Program-made: the position numbers and the translations under genes
In this document: in pieces, positions 5,963 through 53,684 of the stretch
Layout of the letters: every line of letters begins with the position of its first letter
Position numbering within the stretch: position 1 is the first letter of the stretch
The notes under the pieces: generated by a model
Databases searched by the model: none
Told to the model about the DNA's origin: nothing
Seen by the model: the letters and a program-made list of their open reading frames with translations, nothing else
Sequence record: PZ151149.1
Strand: one strand, 5' to 3'
Source: a phage
DNA length: 64,000 bases

Positions 5963-6493
5963 TTAGTATTTTACGTTACGTCGAACGCCTTTTCGAATCT
6001 GACAAATAGCAGACGGTGAAACATTATATTTTCTTGCAAGTTCTACACCCTTCATATGGGGAGAAGATAAAATCTCTTCCACTTGGTCGTCGGTAAGTTT
6101 TGCGTTTCCGTGGTTCTCTCCCCAATTGTTGTTTAATCCTTCTTCCTTCGCATGAACAAGATTTCGGGTATCTGTCGTCCATTCAAGATTATAAAGGTCA
6201 TAGTTTTGTTTGTTTCCATCCTTATGATTAACTACACGGTAGTTATTTGGATTCGGAATAAACGCAACCGCCATAGCTTTATGCATGTTCACGGTTTTTC
6301 TAAATCCATCCGGCTTATAACATACTGTAAATTTAGAATAACCAGTTTTACCATAAACACTAATATAATTTCCGGTCTCTGTATTTCTAACCCTACCATG
6401 AGAGCTAATCTCAAATTGAGTGTAGGGCAACAGCGCATCAATCACTTTCCATTCTTCGACAGGATGGTCATCACAATATCTTTTAATCATCAT
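5963..6493 (-). CDS. HNH homing endonuclease (NUMOD4-like N-term, HNH, C-terminal HTH)
   Basis: EISSHGRVRN, VNHKDGNKQNYDLYNLEW, and C-terminal helix-turn-helix LARKYNVSPSAICQIRKG. Confidence 0.8.
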   Translation of the reverse strand: MMIKRYCDDHPVEEWKVIDALLPYTQFEISSHGRVRNTETGNYISVYGKTGYSKFTVCYKPDGFRKTVNMHKAMAVAFIPNPNNYRVVNHKDGNKQNYDLYNLEWTTDTRNLVHAKEEGLNNNWGENHGNAKLTDDQVEEILSSPHMKGVELARKYNVSPSAICQIRKGVRRNVKY

Positions 6494-6509
6494 ATCACCT
6501 CATAAAAAT

Positions 6510-6540
6510 AAAGCCAACCCTTTCGGATTGGCTTAAAAAA
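6510..6540 (-). terminator. intrinsic terminator
   Basis: AGCCAACCC-TTTCGG-ATTGGCT hairpin with T-rich tail on minus strand, directly after 6541 stop. Confidence 0.5.
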
Positions 6541-6957
6541 TTACATTGCTTCCGTAAAGGTGCGCGAAATAACGTCACGTTGTTGGTCTGGAGTCAGACT
6601 ATTGAATCTTACGGCATATCCGCTAACGCGAATGGTTAGTTGCGGATACTTATCAGGATTAGCAACCGCATCAAGAAGAAGATCGCGACTCATCACATTG
6701 ATATTCGCGTGCTGACCACCTTCGACAACCGGAGCGCCATTATCTACAACAACCGGACGGAAGCTAGTTGTGTGCAGTGCCAGCGAATCGACGTCTTCGG
6801 CGGTGATCACATGTTCTTCTGCGAAAGTTTTACTAACAATTACTTTAGCGCCGATCAGTGCTTTCGGTTCGGATACCAGAATCATAGGCGCGAAGTGTCC
6901 ACCGATAATAGTACCTTTATGCTCACCTTTCATGATTTGAATTGCTTTAAATTCCAT
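6541..6957 (-). CDS. grcA: autonomous glycyl radical cofactor (GrcA/YfiD-like; T4 Y06I-type)
   Basis: C-terminus [11 protein letters not shown]...[33 protein letters not shown] is near-identical to the GrcA glycyl-radical motif. Confidence 0.85.
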
Positions 6958-7092
6958 AATTCACCTCTTATAGATCAGGACGTTCGTCATTAACTTTTCC
7001 AACCAAAACCCCATAGAGCCTATCAGGTTGGACTTTACGATTCTTTTTAATTGTAGCACGAAATCGACGAGCTACGCTATCTTTATTTTTCA

Positions 7093-7578
7093 TCAGTTGA
7101 TACCTAAGCCAATGAAAATAGGTTGGTCTTCTACATTACCCATCCCAACACTAAGTCGATTTACTTCTAAAAACTGCAATACGCTGTCAGTAAATCCTCG
7201 CATGGTAGTATCTAGGATAAAGATTGTTTTGTCAAGACTACGACCTCGCCAAGTGATCGGATTCAGGAAAGTTCGGATCGAAGTGCAATCTACATTTGAA
7301 ATGTTGATATTTTCACCGCGACCGCGTTCTCGGATCGTTTTGGCATGTTCCCGCGTTGTTGAAACGATAAAAACACTATATCCTTTTCGCGTATAATGGT
7401 CATATAACTTGATTGTAGCGTCTGTATGCCCTGTTTGACGGCCTAAATTGATTGAGACGATGGAATCTAGGTCATCAGCAAAATTACGTCGCTTACGGCG
7501 TTCTATGATGCCATCTACGGCAGATACACACGCAGCATAAATCAAATCTTTACTTTCTAATTTTACATCAATATTCAT
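7093..7578 (-). CDS. hypothetical protein
   Basis: 161 aa ORF, no confident motif (GRQTGHT is not a canonical P-loop). Confidence 0.55.
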   Translation of the reverse strand: MNIDVKLESKDLIYAACVSAVDGIIERRKRRNFADDLDSIVSINLGRQTGHTDATIKLYDHYTRKGYSVFIVSTTREHAKTIRERGRGENINISNVDCTSIRTFLNPITWRGRSLDKTIFILDTTMRGFTDSVLQFLEVNRLSVGMGNVEDQPIFIGLGIN

Positions 7579-7640
7579 GGTAAAGTCTCCAGTGAACGGG
7601 GAGAGATCCTTAGATTGTCTCCCCGTTGATGGTTAATATT

Positions 7641-8030
7641 TTATTTTGGATCTGGGTATTTGCTGTGTGGCAATTGTAGATGAGGACCATCTTTGAAACT
7701 AGACCAATCCCCACCCCATTCAACAGGAACACCCAATTCTCGACCAGCTTGTTTAAATGCATCAGCGATCATGCGGTAATATTTCATGTTCCATGTATCC
7801 TTATCTTTAGGATACGCTACAACGTCAACCGCGAAACCGTGAAGATGACGAGATTTCATAGTCTTAGATTTACCTTCCGCAACATATTTCTTTTGCGTTT
7901 CTAGACTACGCACACCTTCCGTAATACCAAAATCGACCGGAGTCAGTTCTAATGCACGATGAACGACTTTTACCAGGTCTGGATGTACACCAACAAGCCG
8001 ATCTTTGCTTCTTTGAGATAATTTAAACAT
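7641..8030 (-). CDS. endolysin, L-alanyl-D-glutamate peptidase (peptidase M15 family)
   Basis: SRHLHGFAVDV and WGGDW...GPHLQL zinc-peptidase motifs; 129 aa. Confidence 0.85.
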   Translation of the reverse strand: MFKLSQRSKDRLVGVHPDLVKVVHRALELTPVDFGITEGVRSLETQKKYVAEGKSKTMKSRHLHGFAVDVVAYPKDKDTWNMKYYRMIADAFKQAGRELGVPVEWGGDWSSFKDGPHLQLPHSKYPDPK

Positions 8031-8058
8031 TATTCACCCCCTTTGTGAGTGATAATAT

Positions 8059-8250
8059 TTAGATTCCTGTGATCCTGCATAGAGTTCTTGTATTAGCACC
8101 AATCAGGATCGCATTAACGGCAACCATTCCCCAATCAACCCACGGATTATTATAAATGCTAAATCCGTTTGCTAGGCCAAATACAAGCATTCCGGTACAC
8201 ATACTCAGAGCAATAATCAACATCACGGTAAAACCAAATGCAAATCTCAT
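8059..8250 (-). CDS. small membrane protein
   Basis: 63 aa, two hydrophobic helices. Confidence 0.45.
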   Translation of the reverse strand: MRFAFGFTVMLIIALSMCTGMLVFGLANGFSIYNNPWVDWGMVAVNAILIGANTRTLCRITGI

Positions 8251-8251
8251 A

Positions 8252-8467
8252 TTATTTTCCTTTTCTCTGTTTACGTTTATAAAAGTAATACATTACCTCA
8301 TCGCGTCCGGTGATCCAACATGCTAGGGCGGTAAACAGGTTTACAATTCCCAACACACCTACGGATGCGGCGCTGTCAACAGACATAGGAACAGTAAAGG
8401 CCATAACTAACATAGCAACGCCACAAATGACATTAAGCACCATTATAATAAGACCGAAGAAAACCAT
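8252..8467 (-). CDS. small membrane protein
   Basis: Hydrophobic ORF; start moved to internal Met to abut upstream gene. Confidence 0.45.
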   Translation of the reverse strand: MVFFGLIIMVLNVICGVAMLVMAFTVPMSVDSAASVGVLGIVNLFTALACWITGRDEVMYYFYKRKQRKGK

Positions 8468-8469
8468 TG

Positions 8470-8649
8470 TCAATCCTCCGACACAAGAAAACCAACAATC
8501 ACGCCAGTGATAAGACATGATGCACCGCTAATAAGACAACCCGCGCCAAGTGATTCCCACCATATAAGGGAAGCGACGATAACACAGAGTCCCCAGACTA
8601 CAGCAATCACAACATAGGCAATGGTCGCCCAAAACATATATTTGTTCAT
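8470..8649 (-). CDS. small membrane protein
   Basis: Hydrophobic ORF; ATGA start/stop overlap with upstream gene. Confidence 0.45.
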   Translation of the reverse strand: MNKYMFWATIAYVVIAVVWGLCVIVASLIWWESLGAGCLISGASCLITGVIVGFLVSED

Positions 8650-8834
8650 AATAAATCCCATTCACCAAACAAATAAGAAAAAAGCCATATCAACAGAAAC
8701 GAGGCGATTGATCCAGCAAGCAAAATGATATTAGAGAATCCGCCGTCTATCCAGCCAATCAAACAGAATACGCCAGTATAGAAGCACAACCCCAGCACAA
8801 AGCATACTATAATCAACCATAGATAAAACGCCAT
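8646..8834 (-). CDS. small membrane protein
   Basis: 62 aa hydrophobic ORF. Confidence 0.45.
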   Translation of the reverse strand: MAFYLWLIIVCFVLGLCFYTGVFCLIGWIDGGFSNIILLAGSIASFLLIWLFSYLFGEWDLL

Positions 8835-8895
8835 AGAAAGCCCTCCAGTTAGCTAATTTAGTGCGGGTAGTACATTCCCCTACCCGCTTTGTTAA

Positions 8896-9054
8896 TCAAC
8901 GTAGAGCTTGTTCTAAAGCGATTCCAAACCATCCGCAAACAACACCCATACAGACAGCGACAAGAAGACTCATTCTCTCTTTAGGGATCATTGCAATCAT
9001 AACAACAACCATACAGAAAGCCATTACCATTGCAGTTAACATTTGTTCAATCAT
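8896..9054 (-). CDS. small membrane protein (52 aa, below ORF-track cutoff)
   Basis: Manually translated MIEQMLTAMVMAFCMVVVMIAMIPKERMSLLVAVCMGVVCGWFGIALEQALR; fills gap between flanking genes. Confidence 0.35.
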   Translation of the reverse strand: MIEQMLTAMVMAFCMVVVMIAMIPKERMSLLVAVCMGVVCGWFGIALEQALR

Positions 9055-9056
9055 TA

Positions 9057-9377
9057 TCACACCTTCAAAGTCATAGACGCATAGACATTAATACCAGGCC
9101 AGTTAGGATCGCAATTATACTCAACATCCCATAGATAAAGCGGTTTAGATGTATCAGCCAGGTTTTTAAAATCTTCTACCCACATTTCAAGGCTATATGA
9201 AGGATAAACTAGGCTATCATACCCTCCGTAACGTTGGCCTACTGGTCGGTCAGTAAAGACTACCTCAAGATCCGGTAATTCTTTTTCTAGGATAACCGCC
9301 AGCGCATAAATCAGGCGGTCTTCCTTGTTACGCTGCCGTAGGACCGTTGTCAGTTGGTTCGTCTGGTTCACTAGCAA
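9057..9377 (-). CDS. hypothetical protein
   Basis: 106 aa ORF; 5' end overlaps 9328..9648 by 50 nt in another frame. Confidence 0.45.
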   Translation of the reverse strand: MLVNQTNQLTTVLRQRNKEDRLIYALAVILEKELPDLEVVFTDRPVGQRYGGYDSLVYPSYSLEMWVEDFKNLADTSKPLYLWDVEYNCDPNWPGINVYASMTLKV

Positions 9378-9648
9378 CTACCTCCACATTTTCACAGAAT
9401 GAAATTTTCACAGACACAATTTTACCATAAGTGAAGAATGAATATACATTATCGAGATATTCAACGTCACCTACAATCACATCAAACTGCGGATCAGCAA
9501 CTGCCGCAACATATTCTACCAGTTCATCAAGAGAATGCAACTTAATTTCATCAATTCGGCTGTATTTGGTTGCATCTTTGATCTTAAAACCACGTTCTTT
9601 CAGTTTATCGATCAGAATTTCGCGCGGAGTTTCAAACAGTTTACTCAT
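9328..9648 (-). CDS. hypothetical protein
   Basis: 106 aa ORF. Confidence 0.5.
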   Translation of the reverse strand: MSKLFETPREILIDKLKERGFKIKDATKYSRIDEIKLHSLDELVEYVAAVADPQFDVIVGDVEYLDNVYSFFTYGKIVSVKISFCENVEVVASEPDEPTDNGPTAA

Positions 9649-9666
9649 AATATAATCCTCACACAG

Positions 9667-9867
9667 TTAATCAGTATAGTCAATAATCTTGCACATTACA
9701 ATTGAAAGAACAAAGACCGCAACCCACATATAGATCCCAGCAATCAATGCTACTTCAATATCACAATATCCAAGAAGTACAACAGGAATAAAAACAAACA
9801 TACAGACCAGCGCAATGAAACTAGCATATACGCTCGAAAATATGATGGCACTATTATTAATTTTCAT
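9667..9867 (-). CDS. small membrane protein
   Basis: 66 aa, two hydrophobic helices. Confidence 0.5.
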   Translation of the reverse strand: MKINNSAIIFSSVYASFIALVCMFVFIPVVLLGYCDIEVALIAGIYMWVAVFVLSIVMCKIIDYTD

Positions 9868-9868
9868 A

Positions 9869-10051
9869 TTAACAATCCTCGCGGTTTAAGTCAACTATAA
9901 TTGCATACAGCATAATGAAAACACTAGCAGATCCTAGAATCAATGCACCGTCACATTTTGAAACGCGCTCATCAAAATGTAACATTATCCATCCGAGGAT
10001 GTTAAAGGCGCAGACCGCGCCTATGTTCGCTAACCAATTAATCTTTTTCAT
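9869..10051 (-). CDS. small membrane protein
   Basis: 60 aa hydrophobic ORF. Confidence 0.5.
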   Translation of the reverse strand: MKKINWLANIGAVCAFNILGWIMLHFDERVSKCDGALILGSASVFIMLYAIIVDLNREDC

Positions 10052-10059
10052 AATATACC

Positions 10060-10386
10060 TTAGAAAGAAACAGTTTTCAAGAAATCCAGATTTTCAGTAC
10101 CGAAAACAGAAAAGTAGTGTTTTCCTTTTTCGGTTTTAGAGAAAGCGATTGTCTTCTCTACATGGTGACGGAAGCCAGACAGACGATCACCCAGGTCAAG
10201 GCGGCAAGCGTAAGTAGTGCCGTTTTCGAAAGTAACCTCGATTTGAGTTTTGTCATATTCGCTTTCATAGGCTTTTGCTGCCGCGTCCTGTGCTTTACGC
10301 TCGAAGTCTTCGAAGTGGAATACTTCGTTTGCGTTAGCGAATACAGAAGATTCAGAGAAGATAACTTTAACAGATACTGGTTTCAT
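10060..10386 (-). CDS. hypothetical protein
   Basis: 108 aa ORF with AAGGAG RBS, directly downstream of early promoter 10422..10462. Confidence 0.6.
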   Translation of the reverse strand: MKPVSVKVIFSESSVFANANEVFHFEDFERKAQDAAAKAYESEYDKTQIEVTFENGTTYACRLDLGDRLSGFRHHVEKTIAFSKTEKGKHYFSVFGTENLDFLKTVSF

Positions 10387-10421
10387 TTTGATACTCCTTA
10401 GTAGTTCGTGTTTCGTTTCGA

Positions 10422-10462
10422 TGGGTGTATTATGATATACACCCTATCGTGTGTCAACAACT
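10422..10462 (-). promoter_or_regulatory. early sigma70-type promoter (TTGACA-17-CATAAT) with conserved leader
   Basis: -35 at 10452..10457, -10 at 10429..10434 (reverse complement); palindrome GGGTGTATA..TATACACCC over -10; leader ATCGAAACGAAACAC. Confidence 0.55.
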
Positions 10463-10465
10463 TTT

Positions 10466-10654
10466 TTAGTCTTTTTTCATAATTTCTAGGGCAGTTTCTA
10501 CCGCACCTTTCCAACCTTCCCACATAATGGACATAGTGATGAAGGTAAAGCACCCGCAGGAATCAGCCTTTTTAGAAATAAACCATTCTACAAACTCTTC
10601 GCTCATACCATGCTCTTTAGCGGATTCGCGTAATTGTTCAATTTTGTCTTCCAT
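10466..10654 (-). CDS. hypothetical protein
   Basis: 62 aa ORF. Confidence 0.5.
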   Translation of the reverse strand: MEDKIEQLRESAKEHGMSEEFVEWFISKKADSCGCFTFITMSIMWEGWKGAVETALEIMKKD

Positions 10655-10663
10655 AGTATCACC

Positions 10664-10852
10664 TCAACACTTAACGTTATTCAATCGATTTTGAAAGTAC
10701 ATATAACAAGCATAGTTCTGTTTTGGTTGTACCGTATCAGATAGACACGCTTTTACAGCCTCGCGGTCCGATGGATCTACACCCTCAGCTTTAAGTAATG
10801 CTAAAATCTGGTTATAGCGTACTCTTAGTTGTACTAATGGTTTCTCCCCCAT
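10664..10852 (-). CDS. hypothetical protein
   Basis: 62 aa ORF. Confidence 0.5.
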   Translation of the reverse strand: MGEKPLVQLRVRYNQILALLKAEGVDPSDREAVKACLSDTVQPKQNYACYMYFQNRLNNVKC

Positions 10853-10863
10853 AATATACCCTC

Positions 10864-11091
10864 TTACAGTTGATCAGCAATGTATGCGGTGCATTTGCGG
10901 AGTTTAGCCATAGCACCACCTTTCATGTCGCTTGCGCCTACAATGTTCATGATCTCTAAGCGATCAGCCGGATTCAGTCTAGTAGCCCAGATCTGGTTAG
11001 CCAGTTCCATTTTACCCATCTGCGGTTCCATCTCAAACAGTTCACGCTCAAAGTCGATAATTTCTTTTGCTGCGTCTTTAAAGTTAATCAT
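10864..11091 (-). CDS. hypothetical protein
   Basis: 75 aa ORF with GGGAGA RBS downstream of promoter 11114..11154. Confidence 0.55.
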   Translation of the reverse strand: MINFKDAAKEIIDFERELFEMEPQMGKMELANQIWATRLNPADRLEIMNIVGASDMKGGAMAKLRKCTAYIADQL

Positions 11092-11113
11092 TTTGATTCT
11101 CCCGTTTCGTTGA

Positions 11114-11154
11114 TGGTTGTATTGTAGGGGAGTTATCCTCCCCTGTCAACACTT
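11114..11154 (-). promoter_or_regulatory. early sigma70-type promoter (TTGACA-17-TACAAT)
   Basis: -35 at 11144..11149, -10 at 11121..11126; palindrome AGGGGAG..CTCCCCT adjacent. Confidence 0.45.
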
Positions 11155-11157
11155 TTA

Positions 11158-11343
11158 TCAGAAATATGCAATATAGTTTGCCAGTCCTACAGAGTCATCA
11201 TTCGGCATTGCTTTTACTGCCAGTTCAAACCCTGCTTCAACTTTCTGTTTAGCGGATTCTTCGTTATAACCCCAAATTACCAGAATAGCTACTACGTTTT
11301 CTTTGCTTACTGCTTTCAGTGCTTTAGTGATGCGACGTGCCAT
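11158..11343 (-). CDS. hypothetical protein
   Basis: 61 aa ORF downstream of promoter 11383..11423. Confidence 0.55.
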   Translation of the reverse strand: MARRITKALKAVSKENVVAILVIWGYNEESAKQKVEAGFELAVKAMPNDDSVGLANYIAYF

Positions 11344-11382
11344 AATTTGATTCTCCGTTTAAGAAAGTGTGTTTCGTTTCGA

Positions 11383-11423
11383 TGGGTGTATTATGCTATA
11401 GGCGGGGTCTGGTGTCAACAACT
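11383..11423 (-). promoter_or_regulatory. early sigma70-type promoter (TTGACA-17-CATAAT) with conserved leader
   Basis: -35 at 11413..11418, -10 at 11390..11395; leader ATCGAAACGAAACAC. Confidence 0.55.
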
Positions 11424-11448
11424 TTTTTCAAAAAAATTTAGGCAATAA

Positions 11449-11476
11449 AAAAGCCACTCCGAAGAGTGGCTTATAG
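11449..11476 (-). terminator. intrinsic terminator
   Basis: GCCACTC-TTCG-GAGTGGC hairpin followed by T6 on minus strand. Confidence 0.6.
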
Positions 11477-11621
11477 GGGAAGGTAGCGAATCTTCCTTGT
11501 CTCCAACCTGCTAGCGGCCTAGCAAGTGAATGCTTTAGCGTACCGGATCACCCCATACGCTGCAATAAATGCGGCTAGGTGACGTCCAAATCATTCTAAC
11601 CGCGCTGTCTTTAGTTCACTA

Positions 11622-11840
11622 TTATTTATATCGCTTTCTCTCGCGACGTTTTTGATCTTCTTCCTTGATAGAGTTAAATGCATCAAAAAGACACATGACA
11701 CTGATCAGGAACATAACCGTATTTTCTACGATATCCCACGGCTTCGCATCAGTACAGATCCCCCAAACGGTAAGAAATGCAAATAGTGCAGAAGAGATCA
11801 CAAGCATGATACTTGCTAAGATATAAAAAGTCATCTTCAT
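11622..11840 (-). CDS. small membrane protein
   Basis: 72 aa, hydrophobic N-half, basic C-terminus. Confidence 0.5.
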   Translation of the reverse strand: MKMTFYILASIMLVISSALFAFLTVWGICTDAKPWDIVENTVMFLISVMCLFDAFNSIKEEDQKRRERKRYK

Positions 11841-12019
11841 GGTTTTACCTCAATTCTTCGATATTCATCACACATCCACGCAGTAAGCAAGAATCCCAAC
11901 ACATAAGCAACAAAATACGTTAATGCTTCTTCTGGTTCCGTGCTATGTGTCATCAGTAAACCAGCGAGAACAGTCTTAATAATTACATTTAAAATAATTA
12001 GCCACGCAAATAGTTTCAT
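11837..12019 (-). CDS. small membrane protein
   Basis: 60 aa hydrophobic; ATGA overlap with neighbour. Confidence 0.5.
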   Translation of the reverse strand: MKLFAWLIILNVIIKTVLAGLLMTHSTEPEEALTYFVAYVLGFLLTAWMCDEYRRIEVKP

Positions 12020-12255
12020 CGTTTGCCCAATTTCGGCCGAGTCTTTTCAAACTTATACATTCCGTAACAATCTCGAATCATCCACGTAACAAGAGCACCA
12101 GTCAACACCGACAACACACAGAAGAAGTAAAACGGTCCGGTTGCATTATCAACATGAGCAAGCCATGTAAAGAAAACACATGCTAAGAATGTAAAGAACA
12201 TCATAAAGCACAAGAAAGCGAAATATTTTATACTACTCATAGAGCCACCATACAA
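12016..12255 (-). CDS. small membrane protein
   Basis: 79 aa hydrophobic; alternative start at 12240. Confidence 0.5.
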   Translation of the reverse strand: MYGGSMSSIKYFAFLCFMMFFTFLACVFFTWLAHVDNATGPFYFFCVLSVLTGALVTWMIRDCYGMYKFEKTRPKLGKR

Positions 12256-12343
12256 CAGATCATAAGAAAACCCAACGCAATAAGAATTGCATCAAATTTA
12301 GTGAACTCAGGTCCACCTATCAACATCATTCGTTCCTGTTCAG

Positions 12344-12541
12344 TCATAGATCACAGATCCATCTAACAACACCACATACAGCGATCAGGAGTGTAGGACC
12401 ACTTGAGAAGAAAACCAATGTACAAAAATCATCTAGTGTAATACCGGAATAACTACCGACTGCAATCACACCGATGATCAGACACAGAAAGAAAACAAAT
12501 GCAATCAGAAACAAAGTATTACTAAACAGTTTAGTGATCAT
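12344..12541 (-). CDS. small membrane protein
   Basis: Hydrophobic ORF, start at internal Met of ORF 12344..12586. Confidence 0.4.
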   Translation of the reverse strand: MITKLFSNTLFLIAFVFFLCLIIGVIAVGSYSGITLDDFCTLVFFSSGPTLLIAVCGVVRWICDL

Positions 12542-12734
12542 TAGACACCCCACGACGGTCAATTTCAAAAACTTTCTTATCACCAACGAAGCATGTCACA
12601 ACTGCCTCGTTGACTTCCGCAAATTGTTGTGTTACCCACTTAAGGTCAGATCGAAACAATGTTTTGTTAATAACAAATGTTTTACCGATCTTATCCTTAC
12701 CCATAAATTTTGCGTTAACCATATCCAATTCCAT
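12531..12734 (-). CDS. hypothetical protein
   Basis: 67 aa soluble ORF. Confidence 0.45.
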   Translation of the reverse strand: MELDMVNAKFMGKDKIGKTFVINKTLFRSDLKWVTQQFAEVNEAVVTCFVGDKKVFEIDRRGVSNDH

Positions 12735-12743
12735 ATTATAGCC

Positions 12744-12902
12744 TTATTTGCTAATCGCTAAACCTAATCCGAAGAGAGCACCCGACGCTACAGTATACCC
12801 GAAAGTTTCAAATGCAGTAAAGATATCTAAGCCACCAGCTAACAGAGTTGCAGTAAACAGAGTACCAGCTACGAACATAAAAGTTTTACCGATAAATTTC
12901 AT
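12744..12902 (-). CDS. small membrane protein (52 aa, below ORF-track cutoff)
   Basis: Manually translated MKFIGKTFMFVAGTLFTATLLAGGLDIFTAFETFGYTVASGALFGLGLAISK; AAAGGAGA RBS; downstream of promoter 12927..12967. Confidence 0.4.
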   Translation of the reverse strand: MKFIGKTFMFVAGTLFTATLLAGGLDIFTAFETFGYTVASGALFGLGLAISK

Positions 12903-12926
12903 CTTGATTCTCCTTTCGTTTGTTTG

Positions 12927-12967
12927 TGGGGGTATCTTACTACCCCCGTTTCATGTTGTCAACTGTT
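12927..12967 (-). promoter_or_regulatory. early sigma70-type promoter (TTGACA-17-TAAGAT)
   Basis: -35 at 12957..12962; -10 weaker; same GGGGGTA..TACCCCC palindrome as at 4761..4777. Confidence 0.4.
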
Positions 12968-12968
12968 T

Positions 12969-13346
12969 TTAAGAAAATTTTACTTCGTCTACAATGTCTT
13001 TCATGACATTGATTTCCATTCCGGTCAGAACACGTTGGAACATGTGCTGCACATACGCTTTCAGGTATTCATTTGATGGCTTACTATCGAAAGTCTTTTT
13101 AGTGTAGTAGTCATCACCGAAAGCTACTGTAATTACATTTTCGTCGTCGTTCCAAGCGATATAAGCAAATTTGCCGTTATCCCAGAAGCGAGCACTAATT
13201 GCTACTTTTGTTGAATCGAATCCTACTTCGCTGTGAGATTCAAGAACTACTTGCGTACCAGTTTCTTTATGAATGTAGTAGCGGGATACTAAGTCAAAGT
13301 TACGGGTGTAGTGACATTCGAATTTATCTTTAAACATCATCATCAT
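12969..13346 (-). CDS. hypothetical protein
   Basis: Start at MMMMFKDKF with AGGAGA RBS; upstream part of track ORF overlaps the promoter. Confidence 0.6.
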   Translation of the reverse strand: MMMMFKDKFECHYTRNFDLVSRYYIHKETGTQVVLESHSEVGFDSTKVAISARFWDNGKFAYIAWNDDENVITVAFGDDYYTKKTFDSKPSNEYLKAYVQHMFQRVLTGMEINVMKDIVDEVKFS

Positions 13347-52246: not shown

Positions 52247-52567
52247 CTAAATATCTAACCAAGACAAGTCAGATCCGCCCAAGATTTTTTCGACGGCGGA
52301 TCTATTTTCTTGATGATATAAGTTAAAACATGGTATCCCATGTCTACGGGCAACATAAACAGCAATTCTAGTTCCTCCCGAAACGATTCCATTAACTTCT
52401 TTCGCCCAAAATAACACACAATCTACAGGATCATCAAGTGTCTCACCTAAGACTTGAGCAACATTTCTAGAAAACAGATTTTGCATGTATAACGGTATAG
52501 AACGAGGATTATCATAAACGTGTTCTAATTCATCCATCGCCAGATTTTTTGTTCTAAGGTTTGCCAT
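52247..52567 (-). CDS. DprA/SLOG-like Rossmann-fold protein, C-terminal segment
   Basis: SRN...SGGTRIAVYVARRHGIPCF resembles the C-terminal DprA/Smf motifs. Confidence 0.55.
   Translation of the reverse strand: MANLRTKNLAMDELEHVYDNPRSIPLYMQNLFSRNVAQVLGETLDDPVDCVLFWAKEVNGIVSGGTRIAVYVARRHGIPCFNLYHQENRSAVEKILGGSDLSWLDI
52270..52304. terminator. hairpin between convergent genes (possible bidirectional terminator)
   Basis: AGATCCGCC...GGCGGATCT 9-bp stem with 15-nt loop, T-rich after. Confidence 0.4.
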
Positions 52568-53246: not shown

Positions 53247-53684
53247 TTATTTGTTGATAACGATCTGATTTCGGCGAATGGTAACATTACTCTTAGAGAT
53301 GATCAGATCATCCGGCACGACGTTAGTTTTGTATGGTTGGAAGCGAACAAGCATCTGATTGCGTTTAGACCCTTCCTTAATCTTGATCTCCATCTGGATA
53401 TTGTTGCCTACGTGAGCAACCGCAATTTCACCTTTATTCTCATAGACCCACTTGATGGTAACGTCTCCAGCAAAAGCCTTAATAACTTGCAATGCTTCGT
53501 CGTATGCGGTAGAGCTGTGAACTTTCAGAAGTCCAGCCGTAGCAAGACGGGAGCAGGTGATCGCCGGAGATTGCCAAACATCAACATTAATTTGCTCAAT
53601 CAGAGTAACACCGCCCTGATCAACTGCTTTGAATGCTTCGAACATTGCCTTTTTCATTGCTACGTGGTTTTTACGGAATTTCAT
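53247..53684 (-). CDS. hypothetical protein
   Basis: 145 aa ORF, no recognised motif. Confidence 0.55.
   Translation of the reverse strand: MKFRKNHVAMKKAMFEAFKAVDQGGVTLIEQINVDVWQSPAITCSRLATAGLLKVHSSTAYDEALQVIKAFAGDVTIKWVYENKGEIAVAHVGNNIQMEIKIKEGSKRNQMLVRFQPYKTNVVPDDLIISKSNVTIRRNQIVINK

Follow-up and report, generated by a model that had tools for sequence, protein, structure and literature searches.

The five small genes immediately upstream of the M15 endolysin gene of this phage probably encode early, accessory, genus-restricted two-helix inner-membrane proteins that act on the host envelope, a reading in which we infer both the early timing and the envelope function. The genes themselves are real and conserved ORFans whose products share one topology class, and they are located within a longer operon of a phage genus that carries its canonical lysis genes elsewhere. 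The window, a stretch of 64,000 nucleotides (sequence record PZ151149.1), derives from a Krischvirus, an RB49/Phi1/JSE-like coliphage related to T4, and the genes of the array region all lie on the minus strand. Five ORFs of 52–71 aa, as described in the initial annotation, are present between positions 8,059 and 9,054 and are referred to here as A (52 aa), B (62 aa), C (59 aa), D (71 aa) and E (63 aa). They do adjoin an M15 endolysin gene, as was also claimed, with a 28-nt gap after E and with Pfam and PHROG matches supporting the endolysin assignment. The features of the locus are as follows:

10429..10457, minus strand: predicted sigma70-type early promoter (TTGACA-17-CATAAT)
9057..10386, minus strand: upstream operon genes, tightly spaced and on the same strand as the array
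9054..8896, minus strand: ORF A, 52 aa; orthologue RB49 ORF107c (RB49p107); phrog_16035
8863..8887, minus strand: A–B spacer stem-loop, within the 61-nt spacer 8835-8895
8834..8646, minus strand: ORF B, 62 aa; orthologue RB49 ORF106c; phrog_19354
8649..8470, minus strand: ORF C, 59 aa; orthologue RB49 ORF105c; phrog_16151
8467..8252, minus strand: ORF D, 71 aa; orthologue RB49 ORF104c; phrog_15232
8250..8059, minus strand: ORF E, 63 aa; orthologue RB49 ORF103c; phrog_15016
8016..8068, minus strand: E–endolysin junction RNA hairpin, predicted by folding, covering the endolysin start codon
8030..7641, minus strand: endolysin, 129 aa, Peptidase_M15_4
6511..6534, minus strand: predicted intrinsic terminator after vs.6, a 10-bp stem followed by a T-run

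The genes had been described as packed with ATGA or short overlaps, which is the case at the B/C junction, where an ATGA overlap constitutes the sole overlap in the array, but not at the other junctions. C and D are 2 nt apart (TGAcaATG) and D and E 1 nt apart (TAAtATG), whereas A and B are separated by the 61-nt spacer with its conserved hairpin; the junctions other than A–B have no spacer. The start codon of A is situated 2 nt past the stop codon of an upstream 104-aa gene (TGAtaATG). Because A abuts this gene and is set apart from B by a spacer, the array is not a self-contained five-gene unit but forms the downstream end of a longer predicted early operon, whose upstream genes encode a 108-aa LPD25-like protein, small TM proteins of 60 and 66 aa, and overlapping soluble proteins of 106 and 104 aa.

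The strong sigma70-type promoter near 10457, which corresponds to RB49 'Pe:57746', most likely drives the operon containing the array; in the RB49 early-promoter predictions, Pe:57746 has a score of 37.4 and the next promoter downstream is at 52389 (PMC1524935 Additional file 3). The terminator after vs.6, the counterpart of the RB49 TransTerm site 53587-53607 ('nrdC.11<--vs.6'), is likely to end the early transcription unit. On the basis of these promoter and terminator predictions, we suggest that the array probably represents the last five small genes of an early unit of ~3.9 kb. Canonical late promoters ([T/A]ATAAATA) were not found on the minus strand between 6400 and 11622, and the published RB49 predictions contain no late promoter between 48.7 and 64.5 kb (PMC1524935). 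In addition, GGAG (RegB-type) SD sequences precede B and D, and novel ORFs in T4-like phages have been reported to be expressed coordinately with early genes (PMC1524935).

The array sits between 57B and regB, in a region corresponding to the T4 e.8-e.1 block, and small TM proteins account for 14 of the 24 genes between 57B and the endolysin gene in RB49, where they form three clusters. The hyperplastic region is rich in non-essential ORFans (PMC2839356), and the array fits this type, consisting of database orphans with a sigma70-like early promoter upstream. Indeed, these are the same genes as the ORFans of RB49 and Phi1 (Arbiol et al. 2010, PMC2839356; Nolan et al. 2006, PMC1524935): RB49 ORF103c-107c are direct orthologues of the array, with 93–94% DNA identity, and lie in a region that is likewise rich in early promoters and non-essential ORFans; the earlier work gave them no function either. 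The genes have been annotated since the RB49 genome, with TM predictions published in 2006, and are thus already known; a literature search for a transcriptome, proteome or genetic study of ORF103c-107c found none.

All five ORFs are real genes under purifying selection. Among 14 isolates, pN/pS in the annotated frames is 0.24 for A, 0.48 for B, 0.22 for C, 0.08 for D and 0.23 for E, against 0.83–2.3 or more in shifted frames, and variable sites gather at codon position 3. Gene order is kept in 59 of 59 Krischvirus isolates (B being missing or broken in a few) as well as in divergent metagenomic relatives, and starts, SD sequences and lengths are conserved in at least 19 genomes, down to 67–79% protein identity, a comparison that comprises 14 aligned isolates and five metagenomic contigs. 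D is the most conserved of the five, being 79–86% identical in the five metagenomic contigs, where its C-terminal 32 residues are invariant; these residues vary slightly in two other database homologues. An 88-aa extended version of D, taken from the ORF-finder listing, was rejected, as the upstream extension is not conserved. C is intact in all 14 isolates and all five metagenomic contigs, E in every genome examined, and C, D and E co-occur in all genomes examined. No disrupted copy of C, D or E was ever encountered, an unusual pattern for ORFans that are purely accessory and one that counts against our preferred reading.

B is under the weakest constraint of the five. A tblastn match was obtained in 58 of the 59 records; B has a 145-nt deletion in ELT4, a frameshifting 11-nt deletion in PHB13, a deleted SD sequence in E26 and an N-terminal half that is out of frame in ECD7. 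Of the 14 aligned isolates, 13 have an intact A, and JK32 has a duplicated or broken copy; A is frameshifted in pEJ01 and 67–69% identical in the divergent contigs. Judged from these genomes, B is dispensable in nature, and A is perhaps dispensable too.

The five proteins are highly hydrophobic (GRAVY 0.98–1.73), and a hydropathy scan places two TM segments in each of A–D, and one clear and one weaker segment in E. The initial annotation had allowed one or two TM helices per protein; the hydropathy scan and the published RB49 predictions together settle on two, the second of E being weaker. Specifically, TMHMM predicted two TM segments for each RB49 orthologue given, including helices 5–27 and 37–54 of ORF103c, the orthologue of E (2006; PMC1524935). 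In the same table, ORF105c, the orthologue of C, is absent and ORF106c is given twice, probably a typographical error (PMC1524935). The two helices of A are connected by a short K/R loop, the two-helix protein B contains no Lys or Arg at all, and C also has two helices. D, with TM segments 2–25 and 30–53, is predicted to form an N-in/C-in helical hairpin, and its AF2 model is a hairpin with helices spanning residues 2–25 and 30–70 (pLDDT 77.5). The C-terminal cytoplasmic tail of D is strongly basic (…GRDEVMYYFYKRKQRKGK), with seven basic and two acidic residues and a net charge of ~ +5, and such a tail is present in D only, A, B, C and E being without one. Hydropathy reveals no periplasmic domain longer than ~15 residues in A–E, and none of them contains a lipobox. 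Since the Cys of the 'LSMC' sequence of E is not conserved, being replaced by Trp in MIZ4, E is not a lipoprotein and 'LSMC' is not a lipobox; E was rejected as an o-spanin on this ground.

Each ORF matches its own PHROG, labelled 'unknown function', and nothing else significant was found in Pfam, NCBIfam, PADLOC or PHROGs for A–E and the two upstream small TM ORFs. A tblastn search of A–E against 50,697 phage records gave matches in Krischvirus only. In a word-indexed search of 5.8 billion proteins, identity does not fall below 79% for any full-length homologue of D, below 88% for any homologue of E or below 86% for any homologue of C. A profile HMM of D recovered its own cluster and no relatives among 1.84 billion representatives, and a Foldseek search with the AF2 model of D (BFVD, PDB) returned only the Phi1 orthologue and otherwise generic helical hairpins with E > 0.3. 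Within the reach of these searches, A–E are genus-restricted ORFans, confined to Krischvirus-like phages. A database label that D carries, 'tail length tape-measure protein', is clearly wrong. Alignment of all five against each other with hhalign gave probabilities of at most 3%, which argues against paralogy among A–E, and tandem duplication was rejected on this basis. The array shows no similarity to T4 Imm, Sp, 61.x, e.2-e.8, trna.2-4 or vs.3-7, nor was sequence or structural similarity to characterised exclusion or anti-defence proteins found for it by PADLOC, tblastn or Foldseek (the latter for D), which counts against our preferred reading.

The initial annotation considered the five as candidate holins, antiholins or spanins, which is not supported, given the T4-type set located elsewhere, the missing family match and the predicted early operon. 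The T4 T holin has ~218 aa, a single N-terminal TMD and a large periplasmic C-terminal domain, and the T4 RI antiholin has ~97 aa, a SAR/signal N-terminus and a T-binding periplasmic domain; two-component spanins comprise an i-spanin with an N-terminal TMD and a periplasmic coiled coil, and an o-spanin with a lipobox signal peptide. We know of no T4-like phage in which t adjoins the endolysin gene. It had further been remarked that no ORF in the window reaches the size of a t-type holin, which is beside the point, as t is unlinked to the endolysin gene. In RB49, t is annotated at 154972-155628 (RB49p254) and rI is RB49p086, located ~7 kb from the array, with rIIB also present. In SSG23 the holin is ORF227, the endolysin ORF101 and the spanins ORF261/262, and RB49, Phi1 and JSE belong to the T4 PseT.3/PseT.2 spanin families (PMC6139136). 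As judged from these annotations, Krischviruses keep a complete T4-type lysis set (t, rI, pseT.3/pseT.2) at unlinked loci. A–E were rejected as T-type holins because of their length of 52–71 aa, two TMDs, lack of a periplasmic domain and lack of a Pfam or NCBIfam match; as RI antiholins because they have no periplasmic domain and the rI orthologue is RB49p086; and as spanins because they have neither a periplasmic domain of more than ~15 residues nor a lipobox.

The endolysin is a soluble M15 L-alanyl-D-glutamate-type peptidase of 129 aa (Pfam Peptidase_M15_4, 6e-12; phrog_465, 9e-69) with a hydrophilic N-terminus and no SAR domain, and its gene is found where T4 has gene e, flanked by the e.x block and vs.8/vs.6/regB (synteny with T4 and RB49). 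In the hairpin predicted at the E–endolysin junction, an upstream arm base-pairs with the start codon of the endolysin gene and with some of its SD sequence (MFE -12.8 to -13.1 kcal/mol, z = -1.9), such that the endolysin AUG has a P(unpaired) of 0.00, the lowest of 18 genes in the early region; the start codons of the small array genes are more accessible. The 28-nt spacer between E and the endolysin gene is identical in 14 isolates, and in divergent contigs the hairpin persists in a stronger form (-18.4) even with an indel and a K3R change, whereas a computed transcript starting at ~8050 loses it (-3.3). The upstream arm carries TCTAAATA (8063..8056), which is one mismatch from the T4 late promoter TATAAATA and ends 25 nt upstream of the ATG; none of the other late genes in the window uses CTAAATA upstream. 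The endolysin thus appears to be controlled separately by a start-sequestering hairpin, which would bury its start in read-through early transcripts.

McPheeters et al. (1986) reportedly described how translation of T4 gene e is masked in early transcripts. As in T4 gene e, the hairpin pairs the initiation region of the endolysin with an upstream arm bearing a late-promoter-like octamer, and a transcript starting ~6 nt after the octamer would be without the 5' arm. The gene differs, however, in being a non-orthologous M15 peptidase, and the octamer is TCTAAATA rather than TATAAATA, with both structure and start predicted here from sequence. The start-masking hairpin design itself is known for T4 gene e (PMC3014915). 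Co-transfer of the array with the M15 endolysin gene was rejected, as closer endolysin homologues occur in many unrelated phages and as the ORFs upstream of the endolysin gene are larger in two other Straboviridae lineages. At the e locus of Bragavirus PM2, NudE and larger annotated ORFs lie upstream of the M15 endolysin gene, and in the Slopekvirus-like Klebsiella phage RCIP0006 the corresponding ORFs are hypothetical and encode 86–133 aa; compared by ORF length, the 52–71-aa array is absent upstream of the endolysin gene in both. The best reading of these comparisons is that the array is not tied to the endolysin and that their adjacency is positional, with an M15 peptidase filling the slot of T4 gene e.

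The stem-loop in the A–B spacer consists of GCGGGTAG, a 9-nt loop and CTACCCGC, with no T-run after it. Among the 19 genomes the stem is kept while the loop varies freely, and in G2494 the stem-loop is annotated as an ARNOLD terminator. It is flanked by TTAACA and TAAATT hexamers, but these are 29 nt apart and thus provide no functional sigma70 spacing, so the spacer was not accepted as an active PeSL promoter; in RB49, no early promoter is predicted at this site (PMC1524935). PeSL cassettes, which combine an early promoter with a stem-loop, have been described for ORFans of RB49 and Phi1 (PMC2839356). The array shares with these PeSL-flanked ORFans a conserved GGG…CCC stem-loop and indels clustered around B, but its spacer is without a correctly spaced promoter, and C, D and E, being invariable between isolates, differ from the 'differential' ORFans that were the focus of that study. 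The stem-loop is probably an attenuator or RNA-stability hairpin, or else a remnant of a PeSL cassette.

Of the five, D is the most plausible candidate for a role in lysis. Class II holins and pinholins are small, with two TMDs, an N-in/C-in topology and a charged cytoplasmic C-terminus, and the phage 21 pinholin S21 has 71/68 aa. D alone of the five has this architecture, resembling S21 and other class II holins in its 71 aa, two TMDs, predicted N-in/C-in topology, basic C-terminus and proximity to an endolysin gene. That D has a textbook class II holin outline, is conserved like essential genes and lies two genes from the endolysin gene counts against our preferred reading. One could imagine that D, or else one or more of the others, serves the M15 endolysin as an additional holin, an antiholin or a regulator of lysis timing, alongside or instead of T, and the location of the array directly upstream of the endolysin gene, its likely co-transcription, the strict conservation of D, E and C and weak sub-threshold Pfam matches of D to holin families point in this direction; indeed, the endolysin gene, being without a canonical late promoter, may be co-expressed with the array from the same transcripts. 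We nevertheless consider this unlikely. The known holin families that the initial annotation proposed for comparison yielded no Pfam or NCBIfam match above cut-off, and A–E have no NCBIfam holin match; the best matches of D, Phage_holin_3_5 (E = 0.058, 14 bits versus a cut-off of 27) and Phage_holin_3_6 (E = 0.9, 10 bits versus 28.4), are far under the gathering scores and stand among equally weak matches to unrelated TM families. D further departs from class II holins in having no dual-start (holin/antiholin) motif, as there is no conserved alternative start, and no canonical late promoter upstream of the array, and its phage already possesses the T holin and the RI antiholin as part of the full T4-type set. 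For a soluble endolysin without a SAR domain, a pinholin would be of no use. The masked endolysin start and the more accessible starts of the small genes argue that translation from the shared RNA is timed differently for the two, related genera that carry this endolysin at this locus have larger ORFs upstream, and small TM genes are the majority gene type of the region, such that adjacency to the endolysin gene is expected by chance. A more elaborate version, in which a D-centred C-D-E trio forms a second membrane module, independent of T, that governs the release or the timing of the M15 endolysin and was acquired or evolved when M15 replaced the T4-type lysozyme at e, appears more improbable still; if it were true, Krischviruses would run two holin-like systems.

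Two further alternatives concern the five as a group. B-C-D-E, or at least C-D-E, might be subunits of one hetero-oligomeric inner-membrane complex, viroporin/channel-like or scaffold, made early and in fixed stoichiometry. The ATGA overlap and the 1–2-nt gaps are compatible with translational coupling, the co-occurrence of C, D and E is invariable in the genomes examined, the five are unrelated in sequence as expected of distinct subunits rather than duplicated effectors, and the invariance of TM2 and tail in D suggests a protein–protein interface. Tight spacing is, however, normal in T4-type early operons, soluble neighbours included, and B is lost without loss of the others, so that this arrangement seems possible but rather doubtful. 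At the other extreme, the ORFs could be non-coding or decaying remnants, either chance hydrophobic ORFs or fragments of a larger, disrupted membrane-protein gene, as they are very short, compositionally biased ORFans lying in three different reading frames, with B repeatedly disrupted. This interpretation is largely refuted and retains hardly any probability: purifying selection is frame-specific in all five, the starts, SD sequences and lengths are conserved across the 19 or more genomes, and no larger homologue exists among the 1.84–5.8 billion proteins searched. Derivation from a single larger gene was rejected on the conserved starts and SD sequences, the lack of a larger homologue and the difference in frames.

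According to the preferred reading, in which A–E are early accessory proteins of the envelope, the five would enter the host inner membrane in the first minutes after infection, where they may modify or protect the envelope and would not form the lysis hole. C, D and E would represent the conserved core, with B, and perhaps A, dispensable, and D probably works via its invariant TM2 and basic cytoplasmic tail. Possible roles include Imm-like exclusion of superinfecting phage DNA, inhibition of a host membrane protein, or counter-defence. T4 Imm confers superinfection immunity and has 83 aa and two TMDs, whereas Sp has 97 aa and is secreted. An Imm-like exclusion role, one sense of the immunity proteins that the initial annotation also proposed, is possible, in that it fits the predicted early timing and the two-TM architecture. 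T4 Imm, trna.4, e.3 and e.4 are likewise small proteins of the inner membrane, have one or two TMDs and come from accessory regions that are transcribed early and leftward; the genes for trna.4 (61 aa, with two segments that look hydrophobic by eye), e.3 and e.4 lie, like the array, between 57B and e. However, Imm and the other small early T4 membrane proteins have no detectable similarity to the array (tblastn E > 1 or no match) and belong to different PHROG families; a tblastn search of T4 Imm and Sp against the window found no match in 8059-9054 at E <= 10, and neither imm nor sp is annotated at the syntenic positions of RB49.

As found, the array is typical of the many small membrane ORFans in the accessory regions of T4-type phages and in itself matters little. 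In these therapy-relevant coliphages the set of lysis genes consists of t, rI and pseT.3/pseT.2 together with the M15 endolysin gene, unlinked as in T4, and the five neighbours of the endolysin gene should not carry holin labels. With small membrane proteins making up more than half of its genes, this region of 5–6 kb is a compact place to look, and finding out what the strictly conserved D, E and C do would add to the sparse knowledge of small membrane proteins of the early phage programme.

Five small membrane-protein ORFs, here A–E, occupy window positions 8059-9054, at the places and with the sizes given in the initial annotation, and the gene that comes next is indeed the M15 endolysin. 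The minus strand carries every gene in the region of the array, so that upstream of the endolysin corresponds to higher coordinates.

Features of the array and its predicted operon (window coordinates)
10457-10429, minus strand: predicted sigma70-type promoter, strong, TTGACA-17-CATAAT
9054..8896, minus strand: ORF A, 52 aa
8863-8887: predicted A-B spacer stem-loop, 8-bp GC-rich stem GCGGGTAG/CTACCCGC, 9-nt loop
8834..8646, minus strand: ORF B, 62 aa
8649..8470, minus strand: ORF C, 59 aa
8467..8252, minus strand: ORF D, 71 aa
8250..8059, minus strand: ORF E, 63 aa
8016-8068, minus strand: predicted endolysin hairpin, 5' arm with TCTAAATA at 8063..8056
8030..7641, minus strand: endolysin, 129 aa, soluble Peptidase_M15_4
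6534-6511, minus strand: predicted intrinsic terminator, good, after vs.6
Operon order, first part, minus strand: 108-aa protein, two small TM proteins, two overlapping soluble proteins, A
Operon order, second part, minus strand: hairpin, B, C, D, E, endolysin, vs.8, 41-aa ORF, vs.6

Extended forms of A, C and D called by the ORF finder were rejected because the PHROG profiles begin at internal ATGs, the starts used by every annotated record; an 88-aa extended D was likewise discarded, as in relatives the extension contains stop codons or the ATG is absent. The packing by ATGA or short overlaps that had been described holds for the B/C junction, which is an ATGA overlap, but not for C-D (TGAcaATG) and D-E (TAAtATG), which do not overlap, nor for A and B, which are 61 nt apart. 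Given this gap, and since A abuts the 104-aa gene upstream (TGAtaATG), the five do not form a closed unit. We note that the 106-aa and 104-aa soluble ORFs before A overlap by 44 nt (window 9328-9377, minus strand), or by 50 nt if the 104-aa ORF is read from its longer TTG start. The 104-aa ORF begins at a GTG or TTG within the 106-aa gene, and purifying selection acts strongly on both ORFs (pN/pS 0.09 and 0.06).

The 3.1-kb stretch around the array is matched at 90-99% identity by 59 phage records, all from Krischvirus, the RB49/Phi1/JSE-like T4 relatives infecting E. coli and Shigella. Shigella phage SSG23 (97.5% across the 3.1 kb) and PHB13 (97.7% across the array) are the closest. Across 14 sequences (the region from 13 isolates plus the window), the annotated frames have pN/pS values of 0.24 for A, 0.48 for B, 0.22 for C, 0.08 for D and 0.23 for E, compared with 0.23 for the endolysin and 0.83-2.3 for shifted frames of the array ORFs, and variable sites are concentrated at third codon positions. 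A–E are real genes, and the alternative that they are non-coding is extremely improbable. More divergent metagenomic contigs (11-175 kb) retain the series of 51/52, 62, 59(61), 71 and 63 aa followed by a 129-aa peptidase, with identities of 79-86% for D, 67-69% for A and 70-83% for C. The final 32 residues of D, comprising TM2 and a basic tail (…GRDEVMYYFYKRKQRKGK), do not vary among the five metagenomic contigs and differ slightly in two further homologues from the databases. Every genome examined has C, D and E unbroken. ORF B is less stable, being deleted in ELT4, frameshifted in PHB13, deprived of its SD in E26 and out of frame in its N-terminal half in ECD7, and A is frameshifted in pEJ01, possibly through sequencing error; in JK32, a 264-bp stretch reaching from within B across the spacer into A is tandemly duplicated. 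A–E as a set are restricted to the genus and conserved in it, and C, D and E make up the core. The JK32 duplication (2455-2720 of its locus, window equivalent 8719-8982) reflects either genuine recombination at the stem-loop or an error of assembly.

All five products are extremely hydrophobic (GRAVY 0.98-1.73). The proposal of one or two TM helices per ORF is borne out both by a hydropathy scan, which finds two TM segments each in A–D and one clear plus one weaker segment in E, and by published TMHMM predictions of two helices each for the RB49 orthologues ORF103c, 104c, 106c and 107c (PMC1524935 Additional file 2). ORF105c, the orthologue of C, is not in that table, where ORF106c is entered twice, probably in its place (PMC1524935). 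AlphaFold models D as a helical hairpin (H2-25 and H30-70, mean pLDDT 77.5). ORF B is unusual among membrane proteins in that its 62 residues include no lysine or arginine and only D30, E58 and D60 are charged, so that its topology cannot be set by the positive-inside rule.

Similarity searches return little beyond the genus. Each of A–E has its own small PHROG labelled function unknown, and Pfam, NCBIfam and PADLOC scans of the array ORFs gave sub-threshold noise only. All five were compared by tblastn with 50,697 phage genomes, yielding no matches outside Krischvirus records, and searches of 5.8 billion proteins with D, E and C recovered close relatives only, at identities of at least 79% for full-length D, 88% for E and 86% for C. 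A profile HMM of D found only its own cluster and one fragment among 1.84 billion cluster representatives, and Foldseek with the D model returned the Phi1 orthologue, other matches being generic helical hairpins. T4 Imm, Sp, e.2-e.8, trna.2-4 and vs.3-7 show no similarity to the array. Paralogy among the five, or with two further upstream small TM genes, was rejected (hhalign probability <=3%). The label 'tail length tape-measure protein' borne by D in PHB13, ELT3/ELT4, JEP8, AV108 and KMB43 is wrong, an obvious annotation-transfer error.

Comparison with T4 and RB49 places the M15 peptidase at the exact position of T4 gene e, in the order 57A/57B, accessory block, endolysin, vs.8, vs.6, nrdC.11 and regB along transcription, and the array corresponds to the T4 e.1-e.8 block. 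The 57B-to-endolysin interval belongs to the hyperplastic regions reported in RB49/Phi1, which contain many non-essential ORFans and promoter-plus-stem-loop cassettes (PMC2839356). In RB49, 14 of the 24 genes of this interval encode hydrophobic proteins of 41-74 aa, in three clusters (ORF118-124, 110-112 and 103-107), and a small membrane gene beside the endolysin is therefore expected by position alone. The same 14 make up over half of the TM-predicted RB49 ORFs in the 2006 table (14/21, or 14/26 if signal-peptide-only entries are counted). This small membrane protein island spans 7138-12170 of the RB49 locus and about 8059-13000 (minus strand) of the window; RB49 ORF118, in the same island, resembles D in its two TMDs and very basic C-tail. 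Bragavirus PM2 and the Slopekvirus-like Klebsiella phage RCIP0006 (Straboviridae) also carry an M15 endolysin at the e locus, but, compared by size and, for PM2, annotation, they lack a 52-71-aa array, having NudE and other annotated ORFs (PM2) or hypothetical ORFs of 86-133 aa (RCIP0006) before the endolysin. The array is a Krischvirus speciality and not a companion of the M15 enzyme. Immediately downstream of the endolysin, G2248, JK32 and JSE have a 191-aa HNH/AP2 endonuclease gene inserted, and their last ~27 endolysin residues are divergent (…VICGVDWVTFKDGPHMELDKKVYPDPV; window 7641-7720), a variant also present in metagenomic contigs L016-L019 that looks like a homing-endonuclease co-conversion tract.

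The predicted promoter and terminator match published RB49 predictions, namely 'Pe:57746' (score 37.4) and the terminator at 53587-53607, between which those predictions contain no further early promoter; nor do they contain late promoters between 48.7 and 64.5 kb. The motif [T/A]ATAAATA has no copies on the minus strand at 6400-11622; on the plus strand, all nine copies of TATAAATA fall within the late-gene region of the window, eight of them 21-38 nt ahead of a late ORF. GGAG, a motif cut by RegB and characteristic of early T4 mRNAs, is present in the SDs of B and D and absent from that of the endolysin. On the basis of these promoter and terminator positions, late-motif absence and GGAG-containing SDs, A–E are best read as belonging to a predicted ~3.9-kb early operon; a literature search found no Krischvirus transcriptome. 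A near-consensus sigma70 promoter (TTGACA-17-TATTAT, 11/12; window 8473-8445, minus strand) lies across the C stop and first D codons, stays promoter-like in divergent contigs (TTGAAA-16/17-TATTAT/TATTGT) and has no call in the published RB49 promoter set; as predicted, it would initiate within D and could provide additional early RNA for both E and the endolysin. Within the A-B spacer, the stem is retained and the 9-nt loop is free to change among genomes, and no T-run follows. The -35-like and -10-like hexamers flanking the stem are 29 nt apart, so the element looks like the stem-loop of a PeSL (early promoter plus stem-loop) cassette without a working promoter, and it could be an attenuator, RNA-stability element or recombination scar. 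It is also where the indels and the JK32 duplication are concentrated, which fits the recombination role proposed for PeSL-type elements.

One element here, a hairpin at the endolysin start codon, seems not to have been described before. The 28-nt E-endolysin spacer is identical in 14 of 14 isolates despite variable flanking codons, and together with the first endolysin codons it is predicted to form a hairpin of -12.8 to -13.1 kcal/mol (z = -1.9). The endolysin AUG is wholly paired in this prediction, its P(unpaired) of 0.00 being the lowest of 18 region genes (0.15 to 0.86 for the others). In divergent contigs, a 1-nt deletion and AAA-to-AGA (K3R) give a stronger predicted hairpin (-18.4), and the M15 endolysins of Bragavirus PM2 and RCIP0006 have comparable predicted designs with AATAAATA and CATAAATA. 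In the window, the 5' arm includes TCTAAATA, which differs from the T4 late promoter at one position and ends 25 nt before the ATG, and a transcript from about 6 nt past the octamer is predicted to lose the structure (-3.3 kcal/mol). We hypothesize a late transcription start at TCTAAATA, with the caveat that C at this late-promoter position is rare outside Aeh1, and no use of CTAAATA was found before other late genes in the window. The predicted arrangement, at a non-orthologous M15 endolysin gene, mirrors the one demonstrated for T4 gene e, where masking lowers translation from early read-through RNA about 100-fold (PMC3014915). RB49 and Phi1 went unexamined in that review, which gave them as having 'no apparent gene e' (PMC3014915).

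The main rival to an early accessory role casts D as a holin-like or lysis-timing protein; its outline fits a holin and it is very conserved. Among known holin families, however, its best match reaches 14 bits against a cut-off of 27, with nothing above threshold. Should the hairpin act as its T4 counterpart does, the endolysin and the small genes would be carried on one early RNA but translated on differing schedules, which argues against a holin-endolysin cassette. In RB49, the T holin gene follows the tail-fibre genes (RB49p254, 154972-155628), the RI antiholin is encoded about 7 kb past the endolysin (RB49p086), and rIIB is also present. In SSG23, the holin is ORF227, the endolysin ORF101 and the spanins ORF261/262 (PMC12533011). 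A survey that assigns RB49, Phi1 and JSE to the T4 PseT.3/PseT.2 spanin families finds lysis genes unclustered in T4-like phages (PMC6139136). All four canonical lysis roles are filled away from the array, and we regard a lysis role for the array as unlikely. That the window has no t-sized ORF, as initially remarked, is uninformative, since no phage of this family has t close to e. Databases and the literature have recorded these ORFs, their orphan status and their TM predictions since 2002-2006; the initial annotation described a known uncharacterised feature accurately, while its holin, antiholin or spanin interpretation is unsupported by genomic context.

We favour the early accessory reading, which is probably correct, and A–E should get no holin annotation. 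C, D and E possibly form one complex, which would be compatible with this reading. RB49 has no imm/sp annotation at the syntenic sites, which weakly suggests room for functional analogues among A–E. Elsewhere, phages are known to make small membrane proteins early that inhibit envelope functions of the host, such as ΦNM1 Gp11 in S. aureus (PMC11237401). A–E would be made early and inserted into the inner membrane, where they may modify or shield the envelope of the host, with Imm-like exclusion, inhibition of a host membrane protein and counter-defence as candidate roles.
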